DNA of 64,000 bases, from assembly GCA_963823665.1 (NCBI GenBank), contig CAWGMQ010000005.1, positions 1,376,001 through 1,440,000 of the forward strand, read 5' to 3'. Positions 15,150 through 41,856 of this stretch are shown piece after piece. The stretch comes from an uncultured Planctomycetota bacterium (GTDB lineage Bacteria > Planctomycetota > Planctomycetia > Isosphaerales > Isosphaeraceae). The first letter of the stretch is position 1. Each line of letters opens with the position of its first letter. A model generated the notes under the pieces. It had not been told where the DNA came from. It worked only from the letters and a program-made list of their open reading frames with translations, and did not search any database. A program made the translations under genes and the position numbers.

Positions 15150-15170
15150 GAGAACGCCCATGGCGAGCCC

Positions 15171-16983: not shown

Positions 16984-17025
16984 CCTCCAACCCCGGCTTT
17001 CCAACCCCCACGGAACTCCCCCCCG

Positions 17026-17478
17026 ATGGCTTCCACCCTGACCAACCTGCTCTACCACATCGTCTTCAGCACCAAAGACCGCGAACCCCTCATCCGCCCC
17101 GCCTTCCGCGACAATCTCGAAAAATACATCGCCGGCATCATCCGCAACGAGGGCGGCATCCTCCTCGGCATCGGCGGCATGCCCGACCACACGCACTTGA
17201 TCACCAAATTCAAACCCGACCGATCGATCTCCGACATGGTACGCCTCATCAAGGCCAACTCGTCCAAATGGGTCAACGAAAACCACGGCGACCCCGGCCG
17301 ATTCGCCTGGCAATCAGGCTATGGAGCTTTCTCCGTGAGCCAATCACAATTGGAGGCACTCAAAGCCTACGTCTCAAACCAGGAGTCTCACCACCGCACA
17401 CGATCATTCCAGGACGAATTCCGCGATTTCCTGACCAAACACGAGATCACATTCGATGAACAATACGTTTGGGGTTAG
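17026..17478 (+). CDS. tnpA: IS200/IS605-family Y1 HUH transposase (RAYT-like context), no tnpB
   Basis: LYHIVFSTKDREP, HUH motif DHTH, KANSSKW, WQSGYGAFSVS, catalytic YVSNQESHH; 150 aa, intact. Confidence 0.93.
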   Translation: MASTLTNLLYHIVFSTKDREPLIRPAFRDNLEKYIAGIIRNEGGILLGIGGMPDHTHLITKFKPDRSISDMVRLIKANSSKWVNENHGDPGRFAWQSGYGAFSVSQSQLEALKAYVSNQESHHRTRSFQDEFRDFLTKHEITFDEQYVWG

Positions 17479-24418: not shown

Positions 24419-24759
24419 TCTCATGAGGTCCATTCGGAAACCATCGAAACGTGGGATAGCTCCCGATGCGCTTAGGGTCGATATCGATATCAAGGTGCAA
24501 GCGAATAACCTCGAGATTCCAGTTGGCACCCTGGTCAGGATCGCACTTAAAGCCCTCGGAGCGATCACAGCGCTGTTAGGAATTATTTGGGCTCTCCGGA
24601 AGTGATCCGGCCGCCGCCACCATCGCCCGTAGGCTGTCGGCATTGCGAAGCATGGTCACCATCGCCCGTCAAATTGGACGTGTCGCGTGGTGGCTCGACG
24701 TTGGTGGTCCGAAATCCGAGCCATAACGTGACACCCGAGGCCCCGGCCTCGACGGCTGG

Positions 24760-25110
24760 CGACGCCTGCCCAAGAAGGCCGCGGAGCTGGCGCCATCGCC
24801 CCGCGGCAAGCGAGACTTGGCCCTCTTGCTCTTGATGCACGATCTCGGCTTGCGCCGCGGCGAATGCGTCGAGCTCGACCTGGGCGACGTCGAGCTGGAC
24901 GACAACCCGGCCGTGTCGGCCGTCGGCAAGGGAAAGACGGAATCGGAGCGTCTAACCCGGGCCTCCGGGCCGTGCGCGGCACTCCGCGGATCACCGCGCA
25001 CGGCCCCGAGGCCGGTCCGTTGTTCGTCAGGCTTGATCCCGAATCTGGGCCCGCGCTCGAGCGATTGACCGGCGATTCCGTGTGCCGAATGGTGGCGCGT
25101 TTGGGGGAGT
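24760..25110 (+). pseudogene. Tyrosine recombinase fragment, truncated at a REP-like motif
   Basis: KRDLALLLLMHDLGLRRGECVELDLGDV (box I), VGKGKTE, RLTGDSVCRMVARLG; the HxxR and Tyr region is missing. Confidence 0.75.
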
Positions 25111-25130
25111 GAAACCGGGGACGCGGCTAG
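25103..25130 (+). repeat. Family-B REP-like motif GGGGAGTGAAACCGGGACGCAGCTAG (copy 1 of 10)
   Basis: Other copies at 25623, 35008, 35035, 35748, 35926, 35949, 37508, 37542 and 41639, all on the + strand. Confidence 0.9.
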
Positions 25131-25162
25131 ATTCGCCGTTACACGAACACCAATCCTAACGA

Positions 25163-25622
25163 TGTCGTTCCGAGTTCCGAGACTCGCGTTCCGGGGACAC
25201 CATCCCTAACTCCCCGCCTCAGTGCCCATCTTCACGAGGTCCGCGTTGGCTCGGCATGCCGCAGGTACACTGTGCGCCAGAAGCCGATCCATCGGACCGA
25301 GCACCGCCCATATCCTCGATCCGTTCGGGCCGTCTCACACGGATAGAATCTGTTCCAGAACCCAGTCATAAACACCGAGCAATGCTTCCACTCGTCCTTC
25401 CTCCACCATGGATTCCAGCGGGATGGACGGCCTCCTGGCGATGCTATCTACGGGAAGGAAAATGCCTGGAATCGCATTGAGTCGATTCAACTTCTCAATC
25501 CGAAGAGCCTCTGCGCCAAAGGGCGGCCTTTTCAGGTAATGCTGGAAATGCGTCTCGAAGGTGCCGTACGTGTAAACCGCGAAGAGCGGGTAGTCGATCC
25601 CCTTGAGCTGAGCGACCGGGAC
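25163..25622. repeat. Roughly 460-bp diverged duplicate of 37598-38058, including the 3' end of the nuclease gene
   Basis: Continuous high similarity from tgtcgttccgagttccgagact to gaccgggacg. Confidence 0.9.
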
Positions 25623-25907
25623 GGGGGAATGAAACTGGGACGCAGCTAGTTTTTCATCCCGTTGGCAAAATCAAATCGACACACTTCGCACTTGAACCAG
25701 AAAAAGTGGCGCGAACCGAAAACACGAACACCAACAAAGGCCGAACCAATCAGCAGACCGCTGCGCAGCGAAAAAGGGAATTCTCCCGCTTTCCCTTTTG
25801 CAGTCGCGCGGACTCGGCTAGAATAACGGTCTAGTCCGTTTCTAGAAAAGTTCTAGGCTTTGACTTGGTCATCGCCAACGGCAAGCCTTGACCTATCTGA
25901 AGGCAAA

Positions 25908-26149
25908 ATGGGAGCTAGGTCTAAGAGGCAAGATAAGCGCATCCGATACCACGATCACGCTCTCGATCGTATTCGCGAACGCGGAATATCTCGCGAACAA
26001 GTGGCTCGAACTTTGCGAAGTCCAGACGCGGAAAGGCCAGCGTAAATCCAGAATGCCAAGCGATTCGAGAAGGCCCTCTCGCGCGCAGGCGATTGGTTGT
26101 GATCGCGAAAGAGACGCCAACCGAATTCTCGGTAATCTCTGCTTGGTGA
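25908..26149 (+). pseudogene. DUF4258/BrnT-like toxin with an internal stop (26043) and a frameshift
   Basis: IRYHDHALDRIRERGISREQVARTLRSPD; downstream piece LVVIAKETPTEFSVISAW; upstream of a DUF2283 gene. Confidence 0.65.
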
Positions 26150-26173
26150 TCGGCGTTTTCGCGGAACAAGACA

Positions 26174-26464
26174 ATGCAAACAGCACGAAAGGTTGTCGGA
26201 TTCGAACTGTCTCTCAGCGGCCGCAGTGACGGCACGCTCGAGACCGCATACGTCCGTTTTCAAAAAGGCGACGTCGCGAGCACGCGGGAACTTGTCGAAG
26301 ACACACTCATCGCTGATTACGACAGCAGAGGACGGCTGATCGGGATCGAGATTCTTGCACCTGTCAGTCTTGCCACTCTCGCCAGGCAAGTAGGCGTTGC
26401 ACGAAGGAGCTCGTTCCGCAAATTCCTGAAGCACTCAGCACCGCGGCAGTTGATCCAAGCCTGA
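26174..26464 (+). CDS. DUF2283-family antitoxin-like protein
   Basis: AYVRFQKGDVASTREL...IADYDSRGRLIGIEIL. Confidence 0.8.
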   Translation: MQTARKVVGFELSLSGRSDGTLETAYVRFQKGDVASTRELVEDTLIADYDSRGRLIGIEILAPVSLATLARQVGVARRSSFRKFLKHSAPRQLIQA

Positions 26465-26500
26465 AGACTACGTCCACCGAAAGGGTGTCACTCAGGAATC

Positions 26501-26513
26501 CCAGACACCCATC
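26501..26513 (+). repeat. Family-C REP-like motif CCAGACACCCA(T/C)C
   Basis: Further copies at 27531, 33758, 34297 and 34368 (+) and 27586-27604 (-). Confidence 0.75.
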
Positions 26514-26781
26514 AACCGTGCCGATCAATGATTGTTCGGGGTTCGACGCAGGGCCTCGAGCCAGCCATCGATTACGCCGATTAACGACTGCACTCTCGGT
26601 TGGCTCTTATTCTGTGAGTGTCTCCCGCCGATCGCCATTGCGATCTCAGAGCGACACAGCCGAGATCGCCCTCCCAGGGTGGCGCCTCCGCGGTCGATTC
26701 GAACTGGAAAACCGGTGTCTGTCGAACGATGTCTTGCGATCCAGCGACAGTGCGTGTGTCTCGATCGGTGTCTTGCGATCC

Positions 26782-27192
26782 TCATCGGACCTGCCAATCC
26801 TCGATCACGAGGCCAGCGACGCGGCTGAACTCGGTGGTGTTGTGCGTGACGAGCGTGCAGCCGTTCGCAAGGGCGATAGCCGCGATCAGCATGTCATTGC
26901 CGCCGATCGTCTGTCCGCGCGCGGACAGCTCCGCTCGAATCCGGCCATACGGTGCGGCGGCAGCATCATCGAACGGGAGCGAAAGGAATTGTTGCCGTAA
27001 CTGTTGAACGCGCAAGGCTGTGTTCGCCCGGTGGGCCGGGTCGGATCGTTCGACGCCGAACAGGAGCTCGGCGACGACCACCGAACACAAAACGATCTCG
27101 GTCGGTGTTTGTGCCTGGATACGGGCGACGATTCGCGGCTGATTCTGCCGCAGCCAGCCGATGCAGGTGTTGGAATCGAGCGGGTACGTCAC
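26782..27192 (-). CDS. vapC: VapC PIN-domain toxin
   Basis: LDSNTCI, CSVVVAELLFG, LPFDDAAA..YG.IRA, IGGNDMLIAAIALA...LVTHNTTEFSRV. Confidence 0.92.
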   Translation of the reverse strand: MTYPLDSNTCIGWLRQNQPRIVARIQAQTPTEIVLCSVVVAELLFGVERSDPAHRANTALRVQQLRQQFLSLPFDDAAAAPYGRIRAELSARGQTIGGNDMLIAAIALANGCTLVTHNTTEFSRVAGLVIEDWQVR

Positions 27193-27425
27193 GACAGCGG
27201 CTCTCGCTCTTCCACGGGGAGTTGGGGCAGACGCTCGAACGTTGGATCGGTGATGCTACCGGCCATCGACTGCACCCAGGCCGCCCATTCTGCGTGGGTA
27301 ATCTCCTTCGCCGCCGCTTCGATGACGACTTGGACCTCCCGGTCGGCCTGGTCGGGACCGAGCGGCACGTCCAGGTGGAGCGTGCCGTCGGGGCCGGTCC
27401 GGGAGTGAAGAACAATGCGGGTCAT
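27189..27425 (-). CDS. Cognate antitoxin of vapC
   Basis: 78 aa, 4-nt overlap with vapC, AGGAG RBS; paralog at 40581. Confidence 0.8.
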   Translation of the reverse strand: MTRIVLHSRTGPDGTLHLDVPLGPDQADREVQVVIEAAAKEITHAEWAAWVQSMAGSITDPTFERLPQLPVEEREPLS

Positions 27426-27603
27426 GGTCGATTCTCCTTTCGCTTAGATTATACCTCGCCGCGTACTTCAATCTGCCCGGAGAGATCCAAGACACCTAGT
27501 ATTTGCGCGGCCTTCAGATCTGAGACGCAAGGACACCCATCAATCACACCGGCGAATGATTGCATGGTTCGTTGACGTGCGTTCTGTGGGTGTCTGAATT
27601 CCC

Positions 27604-28032
27604 CACGACTGCGACGCGTGCATGGACCCGGCCGCACGCGTCGTAGTACTCGCGAATCGCTATATCGGTCCCGGAACCGGCCGCCTCGGGTGCGAATCGT
27701 CGGGTGACCCAGCCGCTCACAAGCCCCCCCAGCACTGCGATTGGTACGAGGAGCCACACGCGCGGAGTTCCTCCCACGGCAGAAGGAACCAAGAGAGTTT
27801 CCCCTGCCGGTCCTCCGGGCCGATACCCTGCGCACTGGGTGAGCGCCAATCGCGTCACGACCTCGCAGGCCGCGAGGAACGCAATCGCCAGGGCCGCGAC
27901 GACCGCGCCGAGAACCACGGAAGCAATCAGCAAACGAAACCGGCTTACGGGTGGGACGTCGGAACTCACGGTACGTTGACCATTAATCGCCGTCTGGATA
28001 ACCAAGGGTGAGGGGAGCGTCGCGAAGCTCAT
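27604..28032 (-). pseudogene. ClC chloride channel N-terminal fragment, truncated at a family-C motif
   Basis: Two hydrophobic segments then GGLVSGW...FAPEAAGSGTD (GSGxx selectivity motif); homology ends at ggggaattcagacacccac. Confidence 0.7.
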
Positions 28033-28212
28033 AATATTCTCCCGGTGACGGATGCGGCATTCCCCTGAAACTCCGGTCAAGACGGTTGTCAGTTGTCCGC
28101 CGCTCAAGTTCTGCAGCTCATTGCGCAGCCCTCTGCACCGATCACGCGCAGCGAAATGACGAACAGCCGGCATGAACGATCGCGCCTGCTCCAACTAGCG
28201 CTCGAACGAGAC

Positions 28213-28596
28213 TCACGTCATCCGTTCCACCCACCTGGCCCGCCACGCCGGCGGCTCAAACGGCTCCGCGAAGTACTGCGTCTCGCGCACGACCTTTCCT
28301 GCCTCAAACTCCATGATGCTCACCGTGTTGACGCGACGCCCCTCATACGTGATCTCATACTCGGTGACCCAGAGATCACCACCGCCGACAATCCGCCGGA
28401 CGACAAAGCCCGACGGCCTGGCCGGGTGCTGGCTGCGGAGGGCTTGCACGTTGTGCCGCCCGCGGACTCGCTCCCCCGACTGTGGGTACTCGACGACGGC
28501 ATCCTCGTTGTAGATCTCGTGTTCGGCCTCCTGATCACCCGCAGCGGAGGCGGTCCAGTGTTTTTCCAGGGCTGCGCGGATTTGCATATCATTCAT
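28213..28596 (-). CDS. SnoaL/NTF2-like protein
   Basis: HEIYNEDAVVEYPQSGERVRGR, SIMEFEAGKVVRETQYFAEPF. Confidence 0.85.
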   Translation of the reverse strand: MNDMQIRAALEKHWTASAAGDQEAEHEIYNEDAVVEYPQSGERVRGRHNVQALRSQHPARPSGFVVRRIVGGGDLWVTEYEITYEGRRVNTVSIMEFEAGKVVRETQYFAEPFEPPAWRARWVERMT

Positions 28597-28643
28597 TTCA
28601 GCCTCCCTTCGTCTGGGCTGCGCTGCCGGACACCTGCCCCGAG

Positions 28644-28920
28644 TTACCCGAGGTGCCCCTGAGTTTCGTGGACGTAGCACCACGTCCACGTAGCCCCGGG
28701 CATTACGGATCGCATCACCGGATGACCCGCCTCATGGAAGTGCCTTGTCGCATGCTTGCCGGGCGAGGAGTCACAGCAGCCGACATGGCCAAACGCCTGG
28801 CACTCCCGCAGCCCGTGCCTTCTTTCAGGCTCAGGCGCTCCTCACAGGCCCCTGGGGCGTTCGCGGCGGTGGGAAGTCGGCCGCTGTCAGCTCCTGCAGG
28901 TGTTCACACGGCTTTTTCAT
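28644..28920 (-). pseudogene. UBP-type zinc-finger protein, damaged in the middle
   Basis: MKKPCEHL start after an AGGAG RBS; GHVGCCDSSPGKHATRHFHEAGHPVMRS...WTWCYVHE; not in the ORF track. Confidence 0.75.
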
Positions 28921-28969
28921 AGGCTTCTCCTTGTGAATACTTGGCAATCTCTGTGTTTTGCCTTACCGA

Positions 28970-30019
28970 TCAAACCCAGCCATCCTCCGGCGCCTCGGCA
29001 CCGAACCAGCGTTCCGTGATCACTTTCTTTCGCGTGTAGAAAGCAACGGCGTCAGCACCCTGCGTATTGAGATAACCGTAAATTGAATTCTTCCAGCCTC
29101 CGAACGGAAAGAACCCCATCGGCGCCGGCACGCCGACATTGATGCCGAGCATCCCGGCCTGGATGCGTTCGCGGAAAGTGCGGGCCGCCGCCCCGGATTG
29201 CGTGAAAAGGCAAGCCGTGTTGCCGTATCGGCTGCGGTTCGCCAACGTGATCGCCGCGTCCAGGTCCGGGGCGCGCATCAGGCTCACCACCGGGCCAAAG
29301 ATCTCCTCTCGGCCGACGAACATCTCCGGCGTAACATCGTCGAAGACCGTCGGCCCGATGAAGCAACCCCGCGGCCTGTGAGGTACGGTTTGGGAACGGC
29401 CGTCGAGGCGAAGCCGGGCTCCTTCCGCCACACCTCGCTCGATCGCTGCCCGGATCCGCTTTTCCTCCTTCGGGTTCACCACGGGACAGAGCGTCGCGGT
29501 GTCGTCTAGGCCGTCTCCCAGTTTGAGTTCACCCGCCGAGCGGATGAAGGCATCGACGACGGCGTCCTGTCGCACTCGATCGCCGACCGCCACCAGCACG
29601 CTCCCGGCGAGACAGCGCTGTCCCGCGGAGCCAAAGCACGATCCAATCAGGTCGGGCAGGATGCGCTCCAGGTCGGCATCGGGCAGGACGAGCAGATGGT
29701 TCTTCGCTCCGCCGTGCGCCACGTCCGAGAAGTTCTTTTCCAGCAGCCCCCGGAACTTGAACAGGACGTGGGCCCGATCCGGCGCTGGAGTGGCGCGCCA
29801 GCCAGGGAAGGCTCGGGCGGCAGCAGCGCATGCCTCGTCCACCTGCTCCGGCGCGGCCTCGCGCACCGGCGCCAGCATCTCGGCCGTGTCCGCCGGATTG
29901 TAGATGTCGCGGCTCGTGTTCCCACGGCCCTCGACCCAGGTTCCACCGATTAGGTTGAGCGCGGAAGCCGAACGCGAGGACCTGGCCGGCGACCGATCGA
30001 TGGCAGCAATAATGCTCAT
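28970..30019 (-). pseudogene. mmsA: Methylmalonate-semialdehyde dehydrogenase-like aldehyde dehydrogenase with a large in-frame internal deletion
   Basis: GGAKNH, FGSAGQRCLAGS, EEIFGPV, GINVGVPAP present; the NAD-binding segment (PFNFP, KPSE, FVGS) is missing between KNFSDVA and HGGAKNH. Confidence 0.8.
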
Positions 30020-30107
30020 AAAGTCCTCCGAAAGCATGAGAGTCTGTTCACGGACGTTCTGTCGAGGTCGCTCAGTCTGCTGTCGAGCGGACAGGGGAGC
30101 GGTCGGT

Positions 30108-31091
<984 letters not shown>

Positions 31092-31177
31092 GGACTTTCT
31101 CCTCATGCACTCTCTGGCGGGATTTCCCAGCGTTAGGTGACCCTGGGAGGGGCTGTCTGTCCGAGTTCTCCCCCGGA

Positions 31178-31826
31178 TCAGTTGTCAAGGAACACCACGT
31201 TCTTCTCGATGGCCTCGCGGCCGATGTGCAGCTTATTGGCGGGGAACTCCGGGTCGGAGTAGCCGACCGCCAGGCCGCACAGGATCGACAGTTCCGCCGG
31301 GATCGCCAGTTGCGCGGACGATCTCGGGATACCCCGCAATCGAGACCTCGACACAAGTCCCCACGCCTCGTGCGGTCAAGGCCAGCAGCAACGTCTGCAG
31401 GTACATCCCCACACCCAGGGCGTCCGCCGGGCCGAGATCCCGGTGCATGCAGACGATCCCGGCCAGCGGCGCTCTGAAGAATTCCCAGTTGCGCAAGACG
31501 GCGGCATCATGGCCCGCCTTGTCCTCGCGGGCGATTCCCATCGCCCCGTAGACTTGGGCGCCCAGCTCGCGGCGATAGTGCCGAAACGCTTCGGGCAGGG
31601 GCGGGATGTTGGGTGGCCGACGCTGGGCCTCCTCGAGTAGGGCCTTGACCAGCCGGTCTCGAGCCGGCCCGGATGCGAACACCACGTGCCACGGCTGGAT
31701 GTCGGAGTTGGACGGCGCGTGCTGAGCCAGGACGAGAGACTCTTCGACCAATGCCCGCGGCACCGGCTGGGGCAAAAACAGCCGCGTCGAATGGCGCTCT
31801 CGGATCACCTGCTCAAGGTCGAACAT
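31178..31826 (-). CDS. Nitroreductase family protein; frameshift near 31310
   Basis: [36 protein letters not shown]; alternative frame [16 protein letters not shown]. Confidence 0.88.
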
Positions 31827-32085
31827 GGTGACTCCTCCTGCCGAAAGAAAGCATGTAAGCCATGCGTTCCCCCAAAGCGGGTGTCCTTGAGGGGTGACAA
31901 CTCCCTGACAACCACCCGTCAGGAGCCATGGTCACGATTCTCGGGCTGGCCCCCGGCACGGTCAAGTCCTAGAGATGGTGCTGTGCTGTCGCTCCGCACG
32001 ACGTTCAGGTTAATTCTCCCGGGATGGATCGTCCCGGGCAGCGAGGCGGCTACCCGTCCGACGGGGAGGCTATTGACGGGCCGAG

Positions 32086-33681
32086 TCAGATATTGGCCAG
32101 CTCGCCGAAATACCCCCGGTCCTCGTGTTCGCCGCCCTCCCCCTCGCCGAAGGCTTTGTGGCTCTCGCAGAACTGGATTTCCCGGATCCACTTGACCATC
32201 TTGAAGCCGAGCTGGTTCTCGACCCGCAGCCGTAGGGGCGTGCCGTGCAGCGTCTTGAGCGGCTCGCCGTTCATCTCGTAGGCCAGCAACGTCTGGGGGT
32301 GCATGAGGTTCTGCAGCGAGTGGCAGTCGTAATACGGGCCCCCATCATGTCCTTCGCCGAACGAGTAGAACGCCGCCACCCGCGCCTCCGGCTTCGGCCG
32401 GACCAGCTTGATCAACTCCGCCATGGGAAGCCCGCCCCACTCGGCGATGCCCGACCAGCCTTGAATGCAATGGTGCAGCGTGATCTGGGTATTCTTGCCC
32501 ATCGCCCGGATCTCGTCCAGCGACAGTTCGACCGGGTTCTCCACCAGGCCGGAGACCTTGAGGCGGTAGTCCCTGAAGTCATCGGCGGCGAGGGTCCTCC
32601 ATTCGTCGCTAGTGGGCACCTTGCCGTTCGGCCAGAAGTAGGGCGAGATGTCCTCACGGCGGAACTCCGCAACCGGAACGGCGCGATCGAGCAGGAGCTC
32701 CATGACGGGCGTGACGATCGCCCGAGCGAGATGCTGGATGGTCCGGGGATACCACCACGACATCCCGTTGGCCAGCGCGTTGAGCGCCACGACCACGCCG
32801 AGTCCCACTAGGCCCAGATACAGCCCGAGCGAGCCGGTATCGTCCGTGCCGAGCACGATATGGTTCATGTTCCGCATGAGCCCGGTGAGGGCCACCATGG
32901 TCACATGGCCGACGAGGAAGGCGACGAAGGCGCACATGATGAGGAAGTGGAGTGACCGGCCGATCTGGCGGTTGCCGGGCAGCTTCGGATACCACGCGAA
33001 TCGATTGGTCAGGGCCGGCGACATCGAGAGCCCGGTCAGGATCGCCAGGGGAGCCAGGAGGAAAACCACCGCGAAGTAGGTCAAATGCTGGAGGGCGTTG
33101 TAGCGGTAGAACCCGTTCGGTTCGGGCGGCATGTGGAACGTGGCGTAATGGACGAAGATGGTCCAGGCATCAGGCACGATCGACCAGGAGGGCGGCACCA
33201 GCCGCCTCCATTGCCCGGTCCCGAAGAGCAGGGCTACGAAGACCAGGCCGTTGCCCACCCAGAACAGCACGCACAGGAAGTGCCAGTGCCGGGCCATGCC
33301 GACGGTGAACCGGTAGCCGGGCAGGCCGATCCAGGGAGAGAGGTAGCGGTTGTCGTCGTTGGCCGTCCAGACGCGGTCCTTCGGCACGTCGATCGGCGTC
33401 AGTCGCAGCCACTCGGTGCCGGGTGTGCAGTGGACGTTCCAATACAACCGAGGGTGGTCCATGAGGATCTGCAAGCCGCTACGGACGAGCAGGATGAGGA
33501 ACAGGAAGTTGACGTAATGGGTGATCCGGAGCCACGCCGGGAAGCCGTGGGGCGCGGCAGCCTCGGGAGCCGCCTCGGGACTGACGGGAACCTGCGGCAG
33601 GCCGAATACGGCCCATTGCGCGTAGGCCGCGGCCACAGGGAGCAGGACGGCCGCGAGGAGCATCACTCGCCGATTTCTCAT
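32086..33681 (-). CDS. Cytochrome b plus molybdopterin oxidoreductase fusion (sulfite oxidase/MsrP-like)
   Basis: RITHYVN...SGLQI, RHWHF, YNALQ, HCIQGWS, LAYEMNGEPL..HGTPLRLRVENQLGFKMVKWI. Confidence 0.9.
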   Translation of the reverse strand: MRNRRVMLLAAVLLPVAAAYAQWAVFGLPQVPVSPEAAPEAAAPHGFPAWLRITHYVNFLFLILLVRSGLQILMDHPRLYWNVHCTPGTEWLRLTPIDVPKDRVWTANDDNRYLSPWIGLPGYRFTVGMARHWHFLCVLFWVGNGLVFVALLFGTGQWRRLVPPSWSIVPDAWTIFVHYATFHMPPEPNGFYRYNALQHLTYFAVVFLLAPLAILTGLSMSPALTNRFAWYPKLPGNRQIGRSLHFLIMCAFVAFLVGHVTMVALTGLMRNMNHIVLGTDDTGSLGLYLGLVGLGVVVALNALANGMSWWYPRTIQHLARAIVTPVMELLLDRAVPVAEFRREDISPYFWPNGKVPTSDEWRTLAADDFRDYRLKVSGLVENPVELSLDEIRAMGKNTQITLHHCIQGWSGIAEWGGLPMAELIKLVRPKPEARVAAFYSFGEGHDGGPYYDCHSLQNLMHPQTLLAYEMNGEPLKTLHGTPLRLRVENQLGFKMVKWIREIQFCESHKAFGEGEGGEHEDRGYFGELANI

Positions 33682-34072
33682 GTATAAATTCCTATCATAT
33701 GTGGCCTGGGGAGCTCGGCCCCTCGCTCGAGGGGCACGGCGTCGTTTTCCTGAGAAGCCAGACACCCACCCTCTGGAGTCAGTTTATTCGGATGCGAGGC
33801 GCACGTCACTCGCGCACCGGTCCGAACTCCGCGCTCGCTGTATCGCCGCGGCCGATGCCGCGCGTCATACGCGCCGTGGCACCACCGTGAACAAGCCTCT
33901 GCGCTTCGTCGCCGGCGCTTGCACCGTCGGTTGCTGGTAACCGCTCAGTATGGACAGCGGTACTTCGTCGCTTACCGCGCCGGCCACGGCAACGCCGCTA
34001 GCTGGCCTCAAGTCAACCGAGTCCTGCGTCTGGCACTGCGACCAGGGCTCAACGAGTAAGCGAGCAGCTTAC

Positions 34073-34290
34073 TTACAAAAACGCAGCTTGCGCGGCAGCC
34101 TTCCCCTGAAACCACTGCCGCGAGCAACGTGGCGCCGTGCGCACGAGCGAAGTTGCTCGAGCTGCGGCCTGCTTGAACATGCGGCCAAACTCGCGCACCG
34201 TGTCGACCCAGTTCGATCGATCCACACCGAGCCGGTCCAAGATCGGAGCCAGGTCTTCAGCACGCCAGAATTGCAGCCTCATCAAGCAAG
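34073..34290 (-). pseudogene. C-terminal remnant of a long RAYT-like Y1 transposase
   Basis: LAPILDRLGVDRSNWVDTVREFGRMFK resembles the C-terminus of long REP-associated transposases (recognised from memory); abuts a family-C motif. Confidence 0.55.
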
Positions 34291-34296
34291 TGGATC

Positions 34297-34436
34297 CCAG
34301 ACACCCATCCTTTCGTGGATCCCGTACACCCACTCATTCGCGGCTTGCACGTTCAGCGCAATGTATTCCAGACACCCATCATTTCGTCATGGCCCCAGCA
34401 TCCACTCATTCGCAGCTCGCACGTTCGATGCAAGAC
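34297..34436 (+). repeat. Two tandem units of about 71 bp, each starting with the family-C motif
   Basis: ccagacacccatc...ccactcattcgc.gct.gcacgttc occurs twice. Confidence 0.8.
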
Positions 34437-34533
34437 CACGGCCTCTGGTCATTTCGAAAACGCAGAACGCGGGTGCCCGACGCTCGACAAACGGTGAGTG
34501 TTCGACATCCCCGCAAGCGTCGGCCGTCGCGCC

Positions 34534-35007
34534 TCAGTCGCTTCGCGCGCGGCGGCCGACTCGGCGTTGCCGGCGCCGCAAGCGTTGAACGCCGCGCTCA
34601 TACTCAAGAAGGCGGGCAAGCGACGACCCGCCAGGCAAGCCTCGCAGCCCCAGGTAGAGCTCGTTCTGGACCATTTGCCAGTTCTCTCCAGGCGCTTCAA
34701 GAATCGGACCCGAGTGCGGCTTCGGCCATCCGCCGGTGCGCGCACGGTGTGCATCAGCCCACGCCAGGATATGTTCCACAGTGAAGGGAACAAGGCCCTG
34801 CACATTCCGCAATCCGCGCTCTTCAGCGAGCAAGCGAGCAATCGATGATCCGCCAGCAAGACCGCGCAAGCCAACGTAGAGAGCGTCATGAACGCTGTGC
34901 CATGTCTCGCCCGGTGCCTCAGGGATGGCGCCGGATCCGGGCTTCGGCCAGGTGCCGTGGCGGGCTTGGTGCGCGTCAGCCCATCGGAGTATTTCTTGAA
35001 TTCGAAA
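34534..35007 (-). pseudogene. 3' fragment of a planctomycete repeat protein (ILAWADAH..RTG.WP...RGLPGGSSLARLL)
   Basis: RGL(A/P)GGSS(I/L)ARLL occurs twice; the 5' part is cut at the family-B motif at 35008. Confidence 0.6.
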
Positions 35008-35266
35008 GGGGGAGTGAAACCGGGACGCAACTAGGGGGAGTGAAACCGGGACGCAACTAGTTTAGACGTTCTACGGACACCACGCCGTATTCCTTGGCAA
35101 AATCAAATCCACACACTTCGCTCTCGAGACGGCGTTTCTTTTGCAGAACGTCTCGCTTCTTCGCCAGCGTATTTCGTTGATTCCTCTCGATCGGCAAAGC
35201 GCCTCCAGCCTGACGCGCCGATCACCTGCACAGTGCGACGGGCCTCTTCACGTTCGGGTTGTCGGA

Positions 35267-35645
35267 CTACCGGGACTGGCCCCTTCGCAGGCTCCACAGT
35301 CCGCGCCGAGAGGATGAAGGTGAAGCCCCCGAGCCCGCCGAGCGCCCAGAGTGTCCAGACGAAGAAAAAGCCGCCGGGGGATCTGGCGATCTCGCCGTAA
35401 TGTGCCCCCCTCATGTGGATGACGGGCGTGCCTGCCGCGAACAATCCGACGAGCAGCATGATGACGTGCCCCGATCGCCGCTCGGGGAGCACGAGCGTCC
35501 CGTACAGGAGGACCGCGAGGATGAGCAGCGCGATGTTTGAGCTCTCGGCCTCCGATATCCCACGGACGATGTCGTCCGTAATGTGAAGCGTCAGCAAGAG
35601 GATCGAGAGCAGAGACGCGATGGTTAACATGGTGTTGTGTTTCAT
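35267..35645 (-). CDS. Small four-TM membrane protein; probable frameshift near the 3' end
   Basis: AGGAG RBS, MKHNTMLTIASLLSILLLTLH, four hydrophobic segments. Confidence 0.65.
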
Positions 35646-35677
35646 TGGAAATTCTCCTTGTTGGATTTGTGCGTGCC

Positions 35678-35747
35678 TCATTGCCCTGCTGCCTTTGCCT
35701 GCTCCCTCCAGCGCTGCTCGTTCACACCAAACACCAGGAGCCACAGC
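35678..35747 (-). pseudogene. C-terminal stub of a DUF4386-like membrane protein
   Basis: LWLLVFGVNEQRWREQAKAAGQ-stop begins directly at the edge of the family-B motif at 35748. Confidence 0.5.
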
Positions 35748-36267
35748 GGGGAGGGAAACACGGACGCGATTAGTTTGTCTATGCTCCCTCGGCTAAACAA
35801 GGTGTCGGGAACCCTATTGTAAGTTCGAAGCCCTCACCGCGGGATCGACGCCACGGCCGCCGTACGCCGCGCCGGGCTGGCCTCGAGGGCGTCGAGCAAG
35901 ACGACGGCTGCCTCGGCGTCGGCGAGGGGAATGAAACAGGGACGCGACGGGGAATGAAACAGGGACGCGACGAGTATTTCCAAGGACATCGAGAACGAGG
36001 AAAATCTGGTCGCCGATTTTTAGGCGACTGCCGGCCCGTCGAAGCTCCGCGCGAGGCTCGCCGAATGGAATGCTTCGCTCGATCCGCTCTTATCTTGAAG
36101 CAACTCCGACTCGGCTCGATCTCGCCGTTGTTCTCATTCGGGAAGCGCCCGAGATCGAGGCGTTCACGAAGGGCCACGCGGTTGCACACCACCGTTGAAA
36201 TCCGTGCAAAACACGCGAATTACCGAAACAGTAAGTGCCAGAGGCGTATGGTCTTCCGCTTCTTGGA

Positions 36268-36314
36268 CCATCCTCACACGGTGGAAGTCGCCGGTTCGAA
36301 GCCAGCGCCGCCCA
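36268..36314 (+). tRNA. 3' half of tRNA-Val(CAC); not a full tRNA, likely an att-site remnant
   Basis: Anticodon arm ccatc-ctCACac-ggtgg, variable loop aagtc, T-arm gccgg-ttcgaag-ccagc, acceptor strand gccgccc-a; no D-arm or 5' acceptor strand upstream. Confidence 0.75.
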
Positions 36315-36336
36315 TGAGAGTCCCGGCGAATTCGAA

Positions 36337-36708
36337 TCAAACGGGTTCAAGGTCCAGCACCACCCGCATGCCCAGTGCCGACGCCAAGGTTTCCATGGTC
36401 GCGATGGTCGGATTGAATTGCTTGCCCGTCTCCAGCTTCGACAGATTTGCACCCTTGATCCCGGTGCGCCGCTCCAGATCGCTTAGACTCAGACCTTGCC
36501 GCTCTCGCTCACGCCTGATCTTTGCGAGAAACTCCACAACGACCGGGGGCGCCTCCTTCGGTGGAAATTCCTCTTTGATCTCCTCGATTTCCTGGCCAAG
36601 TTTGGCCTGGTATTCGGGGGAGCGCCAGATGCGGCGGGCCTCATCGAGCTTCGCCTGTTCTTCGGGCGTCAGCGGCTTCCCTTTGGTTCGGTTAGATCGT
36701 TCGCTCAT
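36337..36708 (-). CDS. XRE-family HTH regulator or antitoxin
   Basis: IRRERERQGLSLSDLERRTGIKGANLSKLETGKQFNPTIATM. Confidence 0.88.
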   Translation of the reverse strand: MSERSNRTKGKPLTPEEQAKLDEARRIWRSPEYQAKLGQEIEEIKEEFPPKEAPPVVVEFLAKIRRERERQGLSLSDLERRTGIKGANLSKLETGKQFNPTIATMETLASALGMRVVLDLEPV

Positions 36709-37146
36709 GGTCCCTCTCCTCAGTCCAATTCGCAGGCCGTTGCAGGCCGGATGATGTTAAACGACTTGTCACCCATCACGTCGTATCCCTTCTCGACGAA
36801 AAGTTCCGTGCGATCATCGACCCCGCCCCACCAAGCCCCGACGACCCAGTACTGAGTCATGACCAATTCCCTTGAAGCGCGTGTTCTTATTGCAAGAGCC
36901 ACTCGATCATCGTGCGGTCCGAAGCGACCTGAACCTCGTCGTAATGGCTCGAGGCTCACCGCAACCGTGTCACACCCTCAGTCGAATGGCAAGTCACACA
37001 TAGCCGCTCGGCAACGCCAAGTTTTTCGTCGAGCGCACGATCCCGCCGCCGCACGCGGCGCACGCGCGGTCCGTCGCTCCGCCCATGATTATAGACGACT
37101 GGAATACGGTACAATGGGTTTGTTCGCTCTAAACAGAAAGGCACCC

Positions 37147-37497
37147 ATGACAACGTTGGATTTCGAACCCTTAAGCGTGGCTGTTCGTCTGCGCGAAGAC
37201 CCTCCCGGCGTGATCCGCGTCGGAAATAGCCACGTCCTTCTCGAATTGGTCCTCAACGCCTTCAAACGGGGAGAGTCTCCGGAGGGCATCGTCAGGTCTT
37301 ATCGGACACTGCAACTTGCCGACGTTTACGCGGTCGTCAGCCGTTACCTTGCTAATCCCGCCCCGTTCGACGAGTACCTTCGGCGATGTGACGAAGAAGC
37401 GGAAGCCATTCGACGCAAGATCGAAGCATCGCAGCGGCCAGGGCCAAGCAAGGAAGAATTGCTCGCTCGCGCCCGGGCGAAGGGACTGATCCCTTGA
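37147..37497 (+). CDS. DUF433-family antitoxin
   Basis: IRVGNSHVLLELVLNAFKRGESPEGIVRSYRTLQLADVYAVVSRYL. Confidence 0.88.
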   Translation: MTTLDFEPLSVAVRLREDPPGVIRVGNSHVLLELVLNAFKRGESPEGIVRSYRTLQLADVYAVVSRYLANPAPFDEYLRRCDEEAEAIRRKIEASQRPGPSKEELLARARAKGLIP

Positions 37498-37769
37498 TCG
37501 CGTTCCTGGGGAGCGAAACCGGGACGCAGCTAGATTCGCATGGAGTGAAACCGGGACGCAGCTAGACTCGGAGTTCCACGGACACCAAACCTGACTCTGT
37601 CGTTCCGAGTTCCGAGACTTGAGTTCCGGGGACACCATCCCTAACGCCCCGCCTCAGTGCCCATCTTCACCCGGTCCGCGATCGCTCGGCATGCCGCAGG
37701 TACAGAGTGCGCCAGAAGCCGATCCATCGGACCGAGCACCGCCCATATCATCGATCCATTCGGGCCGAC

Positions 37770-38897
37770 TCAAACAGAAAGAATCTGTTCCAGAACCCAT
37801 TCATAAACACCGAGCAAGGCTTCCATCCGTCCTTCCTCCACCAGGGATTCCAGCGGGAAGGACGGCCTTCTGGCGATGCTATCTACCGGAAGGGAAATGC
37901 CTGGAATCGCATTGAGTCGATTCAACTTCTCAATCCGAAGCGCCTCTGCGCCAAAGGGCGGCCTTCTCAGGTAATGCTGGAAATGCGTCTCGAAGCTGCC
38001 GTACGTGTAAACTGCGAAGAGTGGGTAGTCGATCCCCTCGTGCTGAAAGACCGGGACGAATGAGCCGGATTGTGCGCCCGCCCCCCAGTCGATTCTGGGA
38101 ACCTTCGATCTGCACCAATCGAGAATTCTCCTCGCAACTGGCACAGCGTCCGGGTGCTTCGCCTGCAAATCGGCGAAAAAGGAGGCTTCGTCCCATTTCC
38201 GCCCGGAGCTCGCTCCAACCGACTTGATCCTCTGCGCGGTCGCCGTTTGACCGATCAGAATCGGCGCAAGTGTACGCAGCCCTTGACCGACGCACTGCCT
38301 GATCTCGATCGCTAGGACTTCCGCAGGGTTCATCTGGCCGTTGAGAAACTCAACAATCCGACGCAGGCCGGGGGGTATCTCATCAGCCACGAAGATCAGC
38401 CGGATTCGACCGGCTTGGAGGTTCGTTTGAACGGCCTGCCAGAAATCTTCCCGTCCGTCTTCCGTACCGAGGAAATCCGTTAGCCTCTCGTCGGGGTCGA
38501 GCCCCCGCTCGCCACACGTCCGTTCGTAACGACTCCGGATCTCCTCAACCCGCCAGAACGCCGCACCGTTCGCGGCGTAATCCAGCATCTGGCCAACGAC
38601 CTCCCGACGGATCTGAGTGTTCGCGCTTCTCTTGACCTCCACAAGTGTCGGCACTGCATCCTGGTCGACAAACAAATGATCAAGAGAACCGCGATCGGCA
38701 CCGTCATCGCCGGAAACGCGCATCTCCCTGCTGACCAGCAGCCAACGCCTCGGCTTCTCCGGATCGATTTGGTCACCGGCTAATAAGTTCGAATAGTCGG
38801 CCAGGAGCCGTTGCAACAGAGCTTCAGAGTCATAAGGCGTTTCGCGCATCTCGACCAGCGCGCCGTCCTCGTGTAGAACGAAAATGCTGCCCGGCAT
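37770..38897 (-). CDS. PD-(D/E)XK (NucS/DUF91-like) nuclease-domain protein
   Basis: SEALLQRLL, SLDHLFVDQDAVPTLVEVKR, EVVGQMLDYAA. Confidence 0.75.
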   Translation of the reverse strand: MPGSIFVLHEDGALVEMRETPYDSEALLQRLLADYSNLLAGDQIDPEKPRRWLLVSREMRVSGDDGADRGSLDHLFVDQDAVPTLVEVKRSANTQIRREVVGQMLDYAANGAAFWRVEEIRSRYERTCGERGLDPDERLTDFLGTEDGREDFWQAVQTNLQAGRIRLIFVADEIPPGLRRIVEFLNGQMNPAEVLAIEIRQCVGQGLRTLAPILIGQTATAQRIKSVGASSGRKWDEASFFADLQAKHPDAVPVARRILDWCRSKVPRIDWGAGAQSGSFVPVFQHEGIDYPLFAVYTYGSFETHFQHYLRRPPFGAEALRIEKLNRLNAIPGISLPVDSIARRPSFPLESLVEEGRMEALLGVYEWVLEQILSV

Positions 38898-39118
38898 GTT
38901 GCTGACTCCTCGAAATCAAGAAGGCAATTCGCGCGAGAAGTGCTGCCAGTATGAGCGCACGCGGCTCGCATGTAAAAGTGTGGGGTTTTCCCGACCGCCG
39001 CCGCTCGATGCCCTATTCGGCCCTTGACCGCGGTTTGTATTTGTCGCGAAAGTCCTCGACGCTCATCATGGGCTTGGTTCTGTGGAAAAGGTGTCAGGAA
39101 CCGAAAACGGTCTTCCCG

Positions 39119-39553
39119 TCACACGTCACTTGGCGGATGCCAGCTCGCGAGCACCCAGTACGCTCGCACAATGAGCGCATCAGGATCGTCCGCAAGATGC
39201 AAAGCGGCAACAGTAGCACGCCCCGTCGGCGTCAGGCCCACCACCCGAATGCCGTCCGCGGACCAGCAAAAATGCTCGGACCAACGCTGAGTCCGCGGAT
39301 TGAACAGGGCCGTTTCAATGCCAGACTCGGGATCTCGTGCCGATGTCCGATCCGATTTAAAACGGTTGCAAAGCGGGCAACACAACCACAGGTTTGATTC
39401 CGTGCTGACGCCCCCTTTACCCTTGGGAATGATGTGCTCGATCTCCAGTCGCGCCATCACAAGTCGCTGCGGACTGAGACAGTAACCGCACCGATTCCCC
39501 GCGCTCGCACGAACGCGCCGTTCAACCTCCGGCGAAATCCAGTCACGCGGCAT
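39119..39553 (-). CDS. HNH endonuclease (TA-like pair with the upstream gene)
   Basis: RCGYC, EIEHIIP..KGG...NLWLCCPLCNRFK, LFNPRTQRWSEHF. Confidence 0.9.
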   Translation of the reverse strand: MPRDWISPEVERRVRASAGNRCGYCLSPQRLVMARLEIEHIIPKGKGGVSTESNLWLCCPLCNRFKSDRTSARDPESGIETALFNPRTQRWSEHFCWSADGIRVVGLTPTGRATVAALHLADDPDALIVRAYWVLASWHPPSDV

Positions 39554-39935
39554 GATCAGCATCTGCCCCGGCAGCGTCCACCGACGCTCGAAGGCCGCGC
39601 GCCACTGCTTCCTTCCACGCGCGCGCCTTCTGCACCAACCCCCGTCGATAAACGACGATAAGCTCGTCAAGCCGCGCACGCTCCGATCCCGCCAGCTTGC
39701 CCTCTCGGGCATCCGATAGCAAACCGCTCAGCTCCGCCTGAAGATCGGCGCCGATCACCGCGTCGCAAAGGGCTAAGACATCGCCATCGGGCATACCCGC
39801 CATCTCTTGCTCCGCGACCGCCTGGCCAATCCAGTCGACCGCCGCATCCTCGAGCCGGCGATTGGAGGCTGCGGCCGCGCTACGCGCGCGCCGGGCAAGC
39901 TCGTCCGAAAGTTCCACTGTGAGTGATTGACCCAT
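39543..39935 (-). CDS. Putative antitoxin partner of the HNH gene (RHH-like N-terminus)
   Basis: LTVELSDELARRARSAA; overlaps the HNH start. Confidence 0.7.
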   Translation of the reverse strand: MGQSLTVELSDELARRARSAAAASNRRLEDAAVDWIGQAVAEQEMAGMPDGDVLALCDAVIGADLQAELSGLLSDAREGKLAGSERARLDELIVVYRRGLVQKARAWKEAVARGLRASVDAAGADADHAA

Positions 39936-40114
39936 AAGCCCCACCTCGACAAGCTACCGCATCCGCCGGAGCTTCCCACGCCCTGCTCGCTCGGGCCGAC
40001 CGCCCAAACCTCCTGATGATCATACCATTTCGCCGATGCCCAGGCGAAGACCAACGCAAGCCCGATTCACCCCGCCAATGGATCTTCGTCCACGAGGTCA
40101 GACCCTCCACGGGG

Positions 40115-41133
40115 TCAGACCCAGTTTCAATTTAGTTCAGAATCCGGCCAACAACGGCAGCGTCGAGCCCAAATCGCGAAGCGTGTCCCCTACCCAAGAA
40201 ATTACAACCGAGCACACGCGTTGAGCCGGCCCGCCCGGATTGATATCCCGCTCATCCCGAAAGACAAGATCTTCAAACGGATAGCATTTGGTCCCGGCGA
40301 TTTTGGGAATTCCTGATCAGTCACCCCGGAGCAACCAGAAGTATGATCCGTGTTCGACCAGTATTTCGTGAGTCGCTTTGAAGCGACGTGTTCAGTGAAA
40401 TCGAGAAGCTCGCACGGGAGCTTCGGCCAAGATTGGAGCACGATGAACGACGTTCATCCGAAAAACGTCCAAAAACAACTGGCACAAACCACATCTGGCT
40501 CTCGAGAATGAAATGTGCCACGCGGACGTTCCGGCAAACAAGGTCTCTAACTGGAAAGCCTCACTCATGTGGAGATTAGCATGACTCGTCTGGTTATTCA
40601 TTCGCGAGTCGGCGCGGATGGTGTTGTGCACATCACCGTACCGATAGGCAAAGAAGACGCCGATCGGGACGTACAAGTGACCATCGATCCGGCTCCGGTC
40701 GAGCCGCCCCCGATGACGGAGCAGGAGTGGCGGGCCTTCGTCCTGTCAACAGCCGGCTCTTGGGAGGGAGACCTCGAGCGACCCAAACAGGGAGAGTAGC
40801 TCTTCATCCCAAAGCGACCGGAAACGGCGGTTCAGCTCGTTTTTCATTCCAATACATTGCCCTTCCATCGGCCCTCCATTCGATCAGACCCAATTTCAGT
40901 CTGATTCAGACGCCGGCCAAGAACCGCAGCATCGAGCCCAAAGCACGAAGCGTCTCCCCTCCCAAACAAATTTCAAGCGAGCACACGCGTTGAGCCGGAC
41001 CGCCCGGATTGATACCCGCTCATCCCGAAAGACAATATCTTCGAACGGATAGCATTTGGTCTCGGCGATTTTGGAACGTCCTGATCAGTCAGGCACCCTG
41101 GAGCAATCAGAAGTATGATCCGTGTTCGATCAG
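40115..41133 (+). repeat. Pair of non-coding direct repeats of about 250 bp (40115-40361 and 40884-41133)
   Basis: Colinear similarity from tcagaccca.tttca to agaagtatgatccgtgttcga. Confidence 0.9.
40581..40799 (+). CDS. Orphan antitoxin-like protein, paralog of 27189-27425
   Basis: MTRLVIHSRVGADGVVHITVPIG..DADRDVQV vs MTRIVLHSRTGPDGTLHLDVPLG..QADREVQV; no vapC follows. Confidence 0.75.
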   Translation: MTRLVIHSRVGADGVVHITVPIGKEDADRDVQVTIDPAPVEPPPMTEQEWRAFVLSTAGSWEGDLERPKQGE

Positions 41134-41559
41134 CATTCCATCAGTGGCCAAGCTCTCCGACTGCTTTCCTCTTCGATTTCTTGATTGTCCCGCCCCTGTG
41201 GCTCCGATCCGTGCCCCGCAATCCAAACGTCCCCGAGACCGCCCGTCCGAACCATCCCTCAGGAATGTGAGCGCCCGTCACGGCGCGCCCTACGACTCGA
41301 AGCAGCCCTATCACAGCGAGCCGTTAGCCCCCGATGTGGACACGGACGCAAGAGATCGCCAACGGAGCGCGGGCAGTAGCCCGGGAGATGAGTATGATAG
41401 AGAGAGAAAGCGGCGCACGAATCCTTCAATAAAAACCTGGGCTGAACGCTGGAGTATGATCGATGCCACGACCCAGAACAGAGACGAAACCACCCACCCG
41501 CACGAAACAGCCCGCCAGCACTAGAGCAATCCCAGGCGTCGAGGCCTCTCCGGTCCGTG

Positions 41560-41640
41560 CGCACGAGTGGCCCGAGGTGCTCACCCTGGCCGAGGCTGCC
41601 ACCTACCTGCGGGTCCCAGAACTTGAAGTGGTCCGCATGG
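41560..41640 (+). pseudogene. Excisionase-like HTH_17 fragment cut at a family-B motif
   Basis: EVLTLAEAATYLRVPELEVVRM followed immediately by the motif. Confidence 0.6.
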
Positions 41641-41856
41641 GGAGGGAAACAGGGACGCGATGAGTTCGTCTATGAATCTAACCGCTGGATGGAATCCGCG
41701 TAATTAGCTTATTGCCTCGGTCGCCATCCCGCCGACGGATCGGTTCAGGAAAAATGGTGATTTCAGCCCCTGTTTTCTTTACAATGAAGGGTAATTACAC
41801 GATGTTCACGGATGGGGGAATTGCCGTACGGGCGTCTCTCATTGCGGAGGTGGCAT

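Follow-up and report, generated by a model that had tools for sequence, protein, structure and literature searches.

Elements in which the gene of a Y1 transposase is bracketed by inverted repeats have been described as TIRYTs or TIRtrons (PMC3733652), and this arrangement is equated with TnpA-Y1 subclass 2.1 (PMC6006769) and with RAYT Group 1 (PMC5581495). According to the accessible parts of these papers, subclass 2.1 genes are found in about 15% of strains (PMC6006769), and the cleavage site and the mechanism are not given. How an element with inverted ends would be mobilized by a Y1 enzyme, which acts on single strands, is not self-evident. The same subclass was proposed by Laurenceau et al. 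(10.1101/2020.03.09.984088) to diversify neighbouring prochlorosin genes, and many truncated transposase copies were described; no inverted repeats were found and no breakpoints were mapped in that study, and the authors later saw no strong evidence for a causal link. In the present work, a short motif recurring in a 64,000-nt stretch of planctomycete DNA (the window, G000:C5:1376001-1440000; the G000 assembly consists of 16.46 Mb in 12 contigs and is 92% complete and 3.5% contaminated) was identified as the terminal inverted repeat of a TIRYT/TIRtron element with a Y1/HUH transposase. The window is probably a field of scars left by one-ended joining at the outer tips of these ends, the transposase being encoded elsewhere.

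By its gene and its ends the motif system belongs with the TIRYTs. As in the published text available for TIRYTs and subclass 2.1, a Y1 gene of about 230 codons with HUH, Y---NP and a predicted C-terminal extension is bracketed by inverted repeats, which are dispersed as singles, dimers and clusters and form no REP hairpin. The protein is 232 amino acids long here compared with about 238 in TIRYT/subclass 2.1, in which the C-terminal extension is HTH-like. The motif core, (G)GGGACGC, is one position off the consensus GGGGWSAS (GGGG[AT][CG]A[CG]) of most published TIRYT repeats, and the middle residue of HUH, which is Trp here, is outside the published list. In the same TIRYT literature, as far as accessible, a cleavage site is not described, nor are deletions next to the ends, stubs anchored at the tip or the relocation of cargo, and a search of the literature that covered few subscription journals did not find a published account of one-ended or tip-anchored joining at TIRYT ends.

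The identity of the motif was established genome-wide. The 25-nt motif pattern gave 77 matches compared with 1 for the control, and the 13-nt core was found 58 times (30 on the plus strand, 28 on the minus strand) compared with 6. The original prediction, in which the motif was a polar joining site for an HUH transposase, had suggested searching for a transposase flanked by it. Such a gene, of the Y1 (HUH) type, was found between the inward-facing motifs at C3:707318(+)/708158(-), and since the motif brackets the Y1 gene as an inward-facing pair, which is the TIRYT arrangement, its 5' side is the outer tip of the element. This two-ended copy contains one stop codon and one frameshift. A second transposase copy, C4:654461-655159, is open over 232 amino acids and has retained its left end and lost the right one; it carries Ser at position 126, where the Asn of the Y---NP motif is present in at least 90% of 37 relatives. 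All 37 aligned relatives matched PF01797, with N59-H60-x-H62 and Y122 invariant and N126 at the frequency given above. The nearest relatives were mostly from Planctomycetota records, which makes a planctomycete host likely, and the core pattern was detected in 30 of the 41 genomes searched, G000 included. From 75 related transposase loci returned, 62 were examined (13 mostly partial matches were omitted), and inverted ends were present in 45 of these, many with the GGGACGC core; close protein relatives carry GGGGTCAG or GGGGACAT-type cores. In the loci L332-L400 the outer six bases vary between elements and are often identical at both ends of one element, hinting that one end may have been copied from the other. 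TnpA-REP 4ER8 was ranked first by both profile and fold searches, the latter with the model of the open 232-aa copy (E 5e-8); the model was alignment-based, and a single-sequence fold gave a pLDDT of 37. The model predicts with confidence a helical C-terminal extension (residues 135-208), in which no Pfam HTH or Bac_DnaA_C match was obtained among the relatives searched.

In the window, nine matches with at most three mismatches were detected, all on the plus strand, at 25624, 35009, 35035, 35748, 35926, 35949, 37508, 37540 and 41639, and none of 100 shuffles of the window contained any. A tenth copy at 25103 has one additional G. The ten co-oriented copies at seven sites, three of them doublets with periods of 26, 23 and 32, were as initially noted, with coordinates good to 1-2 nt. 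With a profile built from 53 copies outside the window, nothing was detected on the minus strand (highest score 2.5 bits, the shuffle maxima being 1.5-20.4), and on the plus strand a single additional copy at 40815, decayed and doubtful, had 8.4 bits, which lies within the shuffle range. The common right-flank words noted earlier are present in the sequence; the word shared by 25662 and 35094 was not found in the genome contigs. A promoter scan of 25000-26200 gave one weak site, and the listing of RNA records contained no holder, which is uninformative on expression. A diverged direct repeat, 40103-40323 and 40872-41091 (84-92%), is also present in the window, and the possible decayed end at 40815 stands immediately before its second copy.

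The breakpoints were determined by comparison with intact homologues. The left neighbour was cut at the outer edge of the motif at six of the seven sites: to the nucleotide at 25624, 35748, 35926 and 41639, and at the protein level at 25103 and 35009. The earlier claim that breakpoints coincide with the 5' edge of the motif was borne out at these sites, and the claim that all seven left neighbours are cut stands for six, 37508 being only suggestive. The solo end at 25103..25130 (+), the copy with the additional G, follows a frameshifted remnant of a tyrosine recombinase (24656..25102, +; weak match to PF00589), which ends at the motif edge and misses the C-terminal catalytic part; a full-length integrase homologue in the genome G042 (locus L176) continues about 56 residues beyond that edge. 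At the solo end 25624..25649 (+), the paralogous segment 37542-38058 diverges from the left neighbour right at the motif edge. The end at 35009..35060 (+), with a 26-nt tip-anchored tandem stub, adjoins a two-repeat remnant of a WADAH-repeat gene (34537..35007, -), in which the stretch from the first repeat to the motif lacks a start codon. Paralogues in this family have open frames of up to 564 amino acids, and the piece in the window had no Pfam or NCBIfam match. Many paralogues of the WADAH-repeat family were seen at G000:C11:302000-820000 and C5:445400-446900.

The solo end at 35748..35773 (+), which retains about 10 nt of right-end interior, cuts off all but the last 22 codons of an upstream gene (35681..35747, -; open reading frame (ORF) 35681-35746). 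DNA from Acidobacteriota records (up to 98% identity) aligns right to the motif edge and runs on with no motif, in 21 motif-free alignments. The gene had been described beforehand as a DUF4386-like stub; a gene is indeed cut at the motif, namely the 22-codon stub, and the membrane-protein gene (35328-35642) keeps its start codon. No Pfam match was obtained for the labels "DUF4386-like" and "nuclease", the latter given to the gene left of 25624, and the stubs of 22 and 29 amino acids had no meaningful Pfam match either. The segment 35328-35747, membrane-protein gene plus upstream stub, points to a recent transfer between phyla, because it is up to 98% identical to Acidobacteriota DNA and the 126-aa membrane protein had no homologue among 60 genomes of the family. 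The end at 35926..35974 (+), with a 23-nt tip-anchored tandem stub, cuts off all but the last 30 codons (35834..35925, -) of a gene of about 155 codons, which may be HEPN-like by its motifs; the homologue (91%) in G001, the genome of a sister species, runs past the edge in a longer gene. Left of the end at 37508..37565 (+), which has a 32-nt tip-anchored stub, a DUF433-like antitoxin gene (37147..37507, +; weak match to PF04255) precedes four codons that probably belong to a partner gene. In the G014 homologue an overlapping partner ORF comes next, suggesting truncation of the left neighbour here as well.

At 41639, the HTH_17 antitoxin gene (41463..41638, +) is cut at the motif edge; it is full-length in G001 and continues in G008. 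The motif is followed by 60 nt of right-end interior and then, on the minus strand, by what is left of the transposase N-terminus, about 25 nt (41639..41750, +). Since G001 keeps the intact HTH_17 gene, an end of like type 3.39 kb further on, and later the same transposase remnant and downstream gene, the site is most readily explained by a deletion adjacent to the end, by which about 3.4 kb present in G001 would have been lost up to the tip. The orthology of the two ends is based on their position because their 87% identity is not diagnostic.

The polarity of the breaks was then determined across the genome in a census of 1.76 Mb of G000, comprising the DNA around nearly all pattern matches and 40 spaced pieces. 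It resulted in 90 motif copies at 61 sites, of which 16 formed eight inward-facing pairs less than 1 kb apart and 45 were solo; Y1 transposase sequence was located within 400 nt inside 11 of the 45 solo ends. The flanks of the 61 sites were compared with 3.1 Mb of retrieved DNA, with a homologue required within 60 nt of the edge. At the outer edge 28 of 61 flanks had such a homologue, and motif-free homologues stopped there at 17 of the 61 sites, after three of 20 flagged cases had been dropped (a motif-bearing homologue, a mis-set edge and a repeat of the same event). At the inner edge, which 29 flanks reached (28 with motif-bearing homologues), motif-free homologues were found at one site at most; the six motif-free flags comprised four matches to one decayed end, one stub joined to an end of another family and one weak 76-nt match. 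The comparison of 5' and 3' edges that had been proposed as a check came out in favour of a polar site.

Random orientation and placement had been named as observations that would speak against such a site. Overall, the two orientations were about equal (30/28). Of 20 pairs of neighbouring solo ends less than 50 kb apart, 17 were oriented alike, and outside the window this was true of 11 of 14 (p=0.03); beyond 50 kb it was true of 9 of 16. Ends of other TIRYT families near motif clusters were oriented alike in 9 of 10 clusters, and ends of a second Y1 family, assigned here as subclass 2.3-like, were co-oriented with the motif in 4 of 4 cases in the window and in 5 versus 4 clusters in the DNA retrieved elsewhere. 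This local co-orientation is probably due to stacking at existing tips or to the exposure of one strand at the replication fork. The motif strand was C-rich in 17 of 28 clusters (p=0.13), and since the sign of the GC skew changes often along contigs, the strands are not assignable to replichores. At fourfold sites of contigs C3-C11 the skew was strong in 20-kb blocks (up to 0.38) with frequent sign flips, suggesting a heavily rearranged chromosome; blocks with motif ends appeared, as judged by eye, to have a skew nearer to zero.

Besides the cut left neighbours, DNA that recurs together with an end was found. The original prediction of units that form a mosaic was supported in that units of end plus cargo recur at distant loci with no second end. 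Within the window, 25106..25623 (+) is an end plus about 495 nt and is a 91.5% copy of 37542-38058, cut at the next end in the 3' part of a 375-aa minus-strand gene. The unit 25624..26496 (+), an end with a DUF2283 antitoxin gene and its upstream partner, recurs with 99.7% identity at G000:C8:466617-465744, and the unit 35951..36656 (+), an end with most of an HTH_3 gene, recurs with 96% identity at G000:C8:467342-466637, where it is cut short; both have a different left neighbour on C8. Along the motif strand of C8, the 706-nt unit (35951-36656) is followed by a 19-nt filler, the 873-nt unit (25624-26496) and then a stub, which is joined to the left end of another family with its transposase start, and another end comes next. 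The order of the two units is swapped relative to the window. They differ in divergence (30/706 and 3/874 differences, p=3e-8) and would therefore differ in age. In both C8 and the window, two cases only, the least diverged unit adjoins the following tip. The C8 joins at 465745 and 465478 are spanned by short-read contigs; the joints listed from such contigs, the depth of which is low, included no excision-circle joint.

An all-against-all comparison of sites gave ten pairs. In the seven independent ones, the non-transposon DNA in common amounts to 44-847 nt on the inner side of the end and to 3 nt or less on the outer side, and this inner DNA has no counterpart in any of three reference pieces taken from the element. 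The other three pairs were one redundant pair, one with stub arrays only and one tandem triplication. The reverse pattern, a shared outer flank of real flank DNA, was absent from the compared site pairs. Two related observations were made elsewhere in the genome. At G000:C6:341540-358665 (L050) a segment of about 5 kb is tandemly triplicated (85-90%); two of the copies break off at an identical nucleotide, at the tip of an end, and the third runs on with no tip. G000:C5:464152 and C10:2568862 have a 60-nt miniature element in common (99%), and the similarity includes DNA past the second end, as if that end had been read through.

Ordinary two-ended TIRYT insertions that accumulated in an accessory region and later decayed would be an alternative explanation, with the outer-edge truncations as insertion sites or adjacent deletions, the C8 copies as unrelated segmental duplications and no single-end movement. 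Any insertion would cut a gene at its outer edge, inward-facing pairs make up 16 of the 61 sites, Y1 transposase sequence lies inside 11 of 45 solo ends, 41639 can be read as an eroded element plus a deletion, and adjacent deletions are common for insertion sequences (IS), according to the accessible part of PMC11708052. On the other hand, the window contains neither the opposite motif ends nor the missing half of any cut gene, the seven pairs share non-transposon DNA that starts within 3 nt of the tip and none is reversed, and the units on C8 are in swapped order. One two-ended copy was checked against G001, which matches one flank to the tip and leaves the other unmatched; it is therefore not a clean insertion, and no clean empty site was found for the copy checked. 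Target-site duplications of at least 3 nt were absent from all eight own pairs and present in 2 of 20 related elements, compared with 21% of shuffled pairs. This explanation is considered unlikely.

In a scan not anchored to the motif, 16 tandem duplications were detected at 14 of 60 sites, all starting from -5 to +1 nt relative to the motif start, and 2 of 294 control windows had any duplication. An anchored scan gave 29 stubs of 12-59 nt. In other genomes 27 of 129 ends carry a stub; in 21 of these the start lies 9-14 nt outside the core, in another four it lies there after a shift of one period, and in two it does not. The motif contains an internal repeat with a 12-nt period, which accounts for the stubs of 12-13 nt. 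The join lies before G in 14 of 17 targets (by eye) and in 25 of 29 stubs, p being about 0.01 for each against conservative nulls. None of five ends tested had a significantly stable hairpin (z from -1.3 to +1.5), and a GTAG foot is absent from the end consensus; readings of the motif as a hairpin, REP or attC were ruled out by the absence of a stable fold in the ends tested.

Host repair alone could also be considered: the scattered G-rich repeats of 25 bp would offer stretches of short homology or stalling points at which slippage and template switching occur, and no nick by an enzyme would be involved. The microhomology of 1-3 nt of G at most joins, the internal 12-nt-period repeat and the lack of a clearly functional transposase would fit it. 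Homology-driven switching, however, predicts equal sharing of outer and inner flanks, in contrast to the seven inner and no outer cases observed. Moreover, the stubs of 15-59 nt all begin at the tip, and most targets have just a G in common with the motif. Host repair as the only cause is thus judged improbable, slightly more so than piled-up insertions.

The preferred explanation remains one-ended joining at the tip. The identity of the motif, the polarity and position of the joins and their products were observed directly, and the nick, its chemistry, the action in trans and any circular intermediate are steps that we infer. The nick would be made by a transposase from elsewhere in the genome, at a distance of about 12 nt from the GGGACGC core on its outer side; the enzyme would hold the tip through a 5'-phosphotyrosine bond, which a free 3'-OH from another place would attack. 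A 3'-OH from upstream would yield an adjacent deletion, the outcome seen at 41639. One from just inside the end, provided by polymerase extension or by the sister strand, would yield a tip-anchored tandem stub, an outcome also seen. Where the 3'-OH lies far off in the genome, or is that of another Y1 tip, a copy of end plus cargo would be placed there, as seen at C8. Deletions, stubs and relocated units are all explained in this way, because the nick is placed at the tip and the product is set by the source of the 3'-OH. The enzyme is likely to join one end at a time, deleting and duplicating adjacent DNA and not building true gene cassettes, and the adjacent DNA was probably relocated by such joining. 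More tentatively, TIRYT ends in general may be single-ended gene movers: at any single end, the Y1 enzyme would nick outside the core at a constant distance from it and join the tip to a free 3'-OH, including that at the tip of another Y1 family, so that units of 0.1-0.9 kb or larger would be copied far away and stacked head to tail, the newest adjoining the receiving tip.

Several results weigh against one-ended joining. Neither cleavage nor activity was observed, and cutting by the enzyme is a proposal from sequence. The sole open ORF of the subfamily in the assembly lacks the right end and has Ser for a conserved Asn, and the copy with both ends is interrupted by a stop and a frameshift; because the transposase copies of the assembly are defective or altered, the events may be old or due to the enzyme of another family. 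Just 28 of 61 outer flanks had a nearby homologue, from a database built round motif sites, and the G at the joins is equally explicable as microhomology for host repair. The inner junctions, at which 10-60 nt of interior are followed by unrelated motif-free DNA, are not directly explained, and the 19-nt filler at the C8 join has no source in the retrieved DNA. The right boundary of the 873-nt unit coincides in the window with a subclass 2.3-like tip and would therefore reflect two families joined at one nucleotide and not an independent fresh cut.

The original prediction had described the region as an integron-like cassette mosaic, that is, the motif as a reusable recombination site delimiting cassettes that are captured, excised and reordered. 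Integrons are similar in their co-oriented short sites between accessory genes and in units that recur in new order; here also the co-orientation of neighbouring solo ends, the least diverged unit beside the following tip (in the two cases) and the toxin-antitoxin genes among the cargo would fit. However, the units end within genes and destroy them, which largely refutes this explanation. No attC-like hairpin was detected, and the integron integrase profile TIGR02249 gave 18 matches, none over the cut-off, in this 92% complete genome. One junction is a plain deletion, and the site belongs to a known class of transposon end that occurs in both orientations genome-wide. In the strict sense the cassette claim was therefore abandoned and is regarded as very improbable. 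The other part, a joining site with polarity that is linked to an HUH (Y1) transposase gene located elsewhere, was supported by the breakpoint polarity and the bracketed transposase gene. That the stubs and the near-identical C5 and C8 copies are assembly artefacts, as a 12-contig assembly of the stated completeness and contamination and a copy pair of 99.7% identity might suggest, is hardly credible, as public soil short-read contigs, possibly from the same strain, span the 25103 join (24771-25323, 3 differences), the 35009 doublet (34948-35154, 0 differences) and the two C8 joins with 0-3 differences, and stubs are present at ends in many other assemblies.

Among other HUH systems, TnpA-REP (PMC3333891; PMC8266576) includes the closest solved structure, 4ER8. 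According to the accessible text, cleavage by HUH enzymes results in a 5'-phosphotyrosine link and a free 3'-OH able to prime synthesis or attack this link (PMC8266576), and a nick-extend-rejoin route was proposed for BIME amplification into tandem copies (PMC3333891). This route fits the stubs found here, and the chemistry and the loose second-site specificity described in the same sources would be shared as well. In contrast, REPs are GTAG-tagged hairpins cut between C and T, whereas the present motif is a non-hairpin and joins before G, and the products here include kilobase deletions and relocated genes. Members of the IS200/IS605 family (IS608, ISDra2) share the Y1 fold, the lack of target duplication and a possible fork strand bias. 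They differ in their non-inverted hairpin ends, short TnpA and precise unit excision from the inverted non-hairpin ends and the 232-aa protein, nearer to 4ER8, of the present system. The enzyme of IS91 is a Y2 protein. As described in the part of PMC13181058 that is accessible, transposition from one end by this HUH enzyme takes neighbouring DNA along and leaves no target duplication, as is proposed here, and IS91 has distinct ori and ter ends with no inverted repeats; in the present system both ends are the same repeat, and left- and right-type ends both occur solo. By analogy, the mode of action would resemble IS91 one-ended transposition and IS adjacent deletion (PMC11708052, in its accessible part), with membership of neither family.

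The locus and its relatives yield a prediction at the nucleotide level: a nick 12-13 nt outside the core, before G, with the tip as the 5' partner. If one-ended joining is true, accessory genes, those of toxin-antitoxin systems included, would be deleted, duplicated and relocated by lone ends, and the fragment-rich islands of these genomes would be explained in part. If single-ended gene movement is true more generally, it would be an undescribed route of gene shuffling common to several HUH families in large planctomycete genomes.

Other Y1 families were also detected in the window. An end of the subclass 2.3-like family is located at 26495..26510 (+), its tip being the nucleotide where the C8 copy stops, and further ends at 27483, 34292 and 34363 are oriented, like the first, in the same way as the studied ends. 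A transposase remnant (34072-34333, -) accompanies these ends, and the segment 33750-34260 has more than 20 look-alikes in the genome. An end of a third Y1 (TIRYT) family, the repeat of which flanks the transposase at C10:640000, is located at 39084..39102 (+) in the orientation of the motif; homologies in G001, C10 and C5 begin precisely at its tip. An array of repeats with a 75-nt period is present beside another Y1 transposase at 15161-17034 and 17038-17382 of the window.

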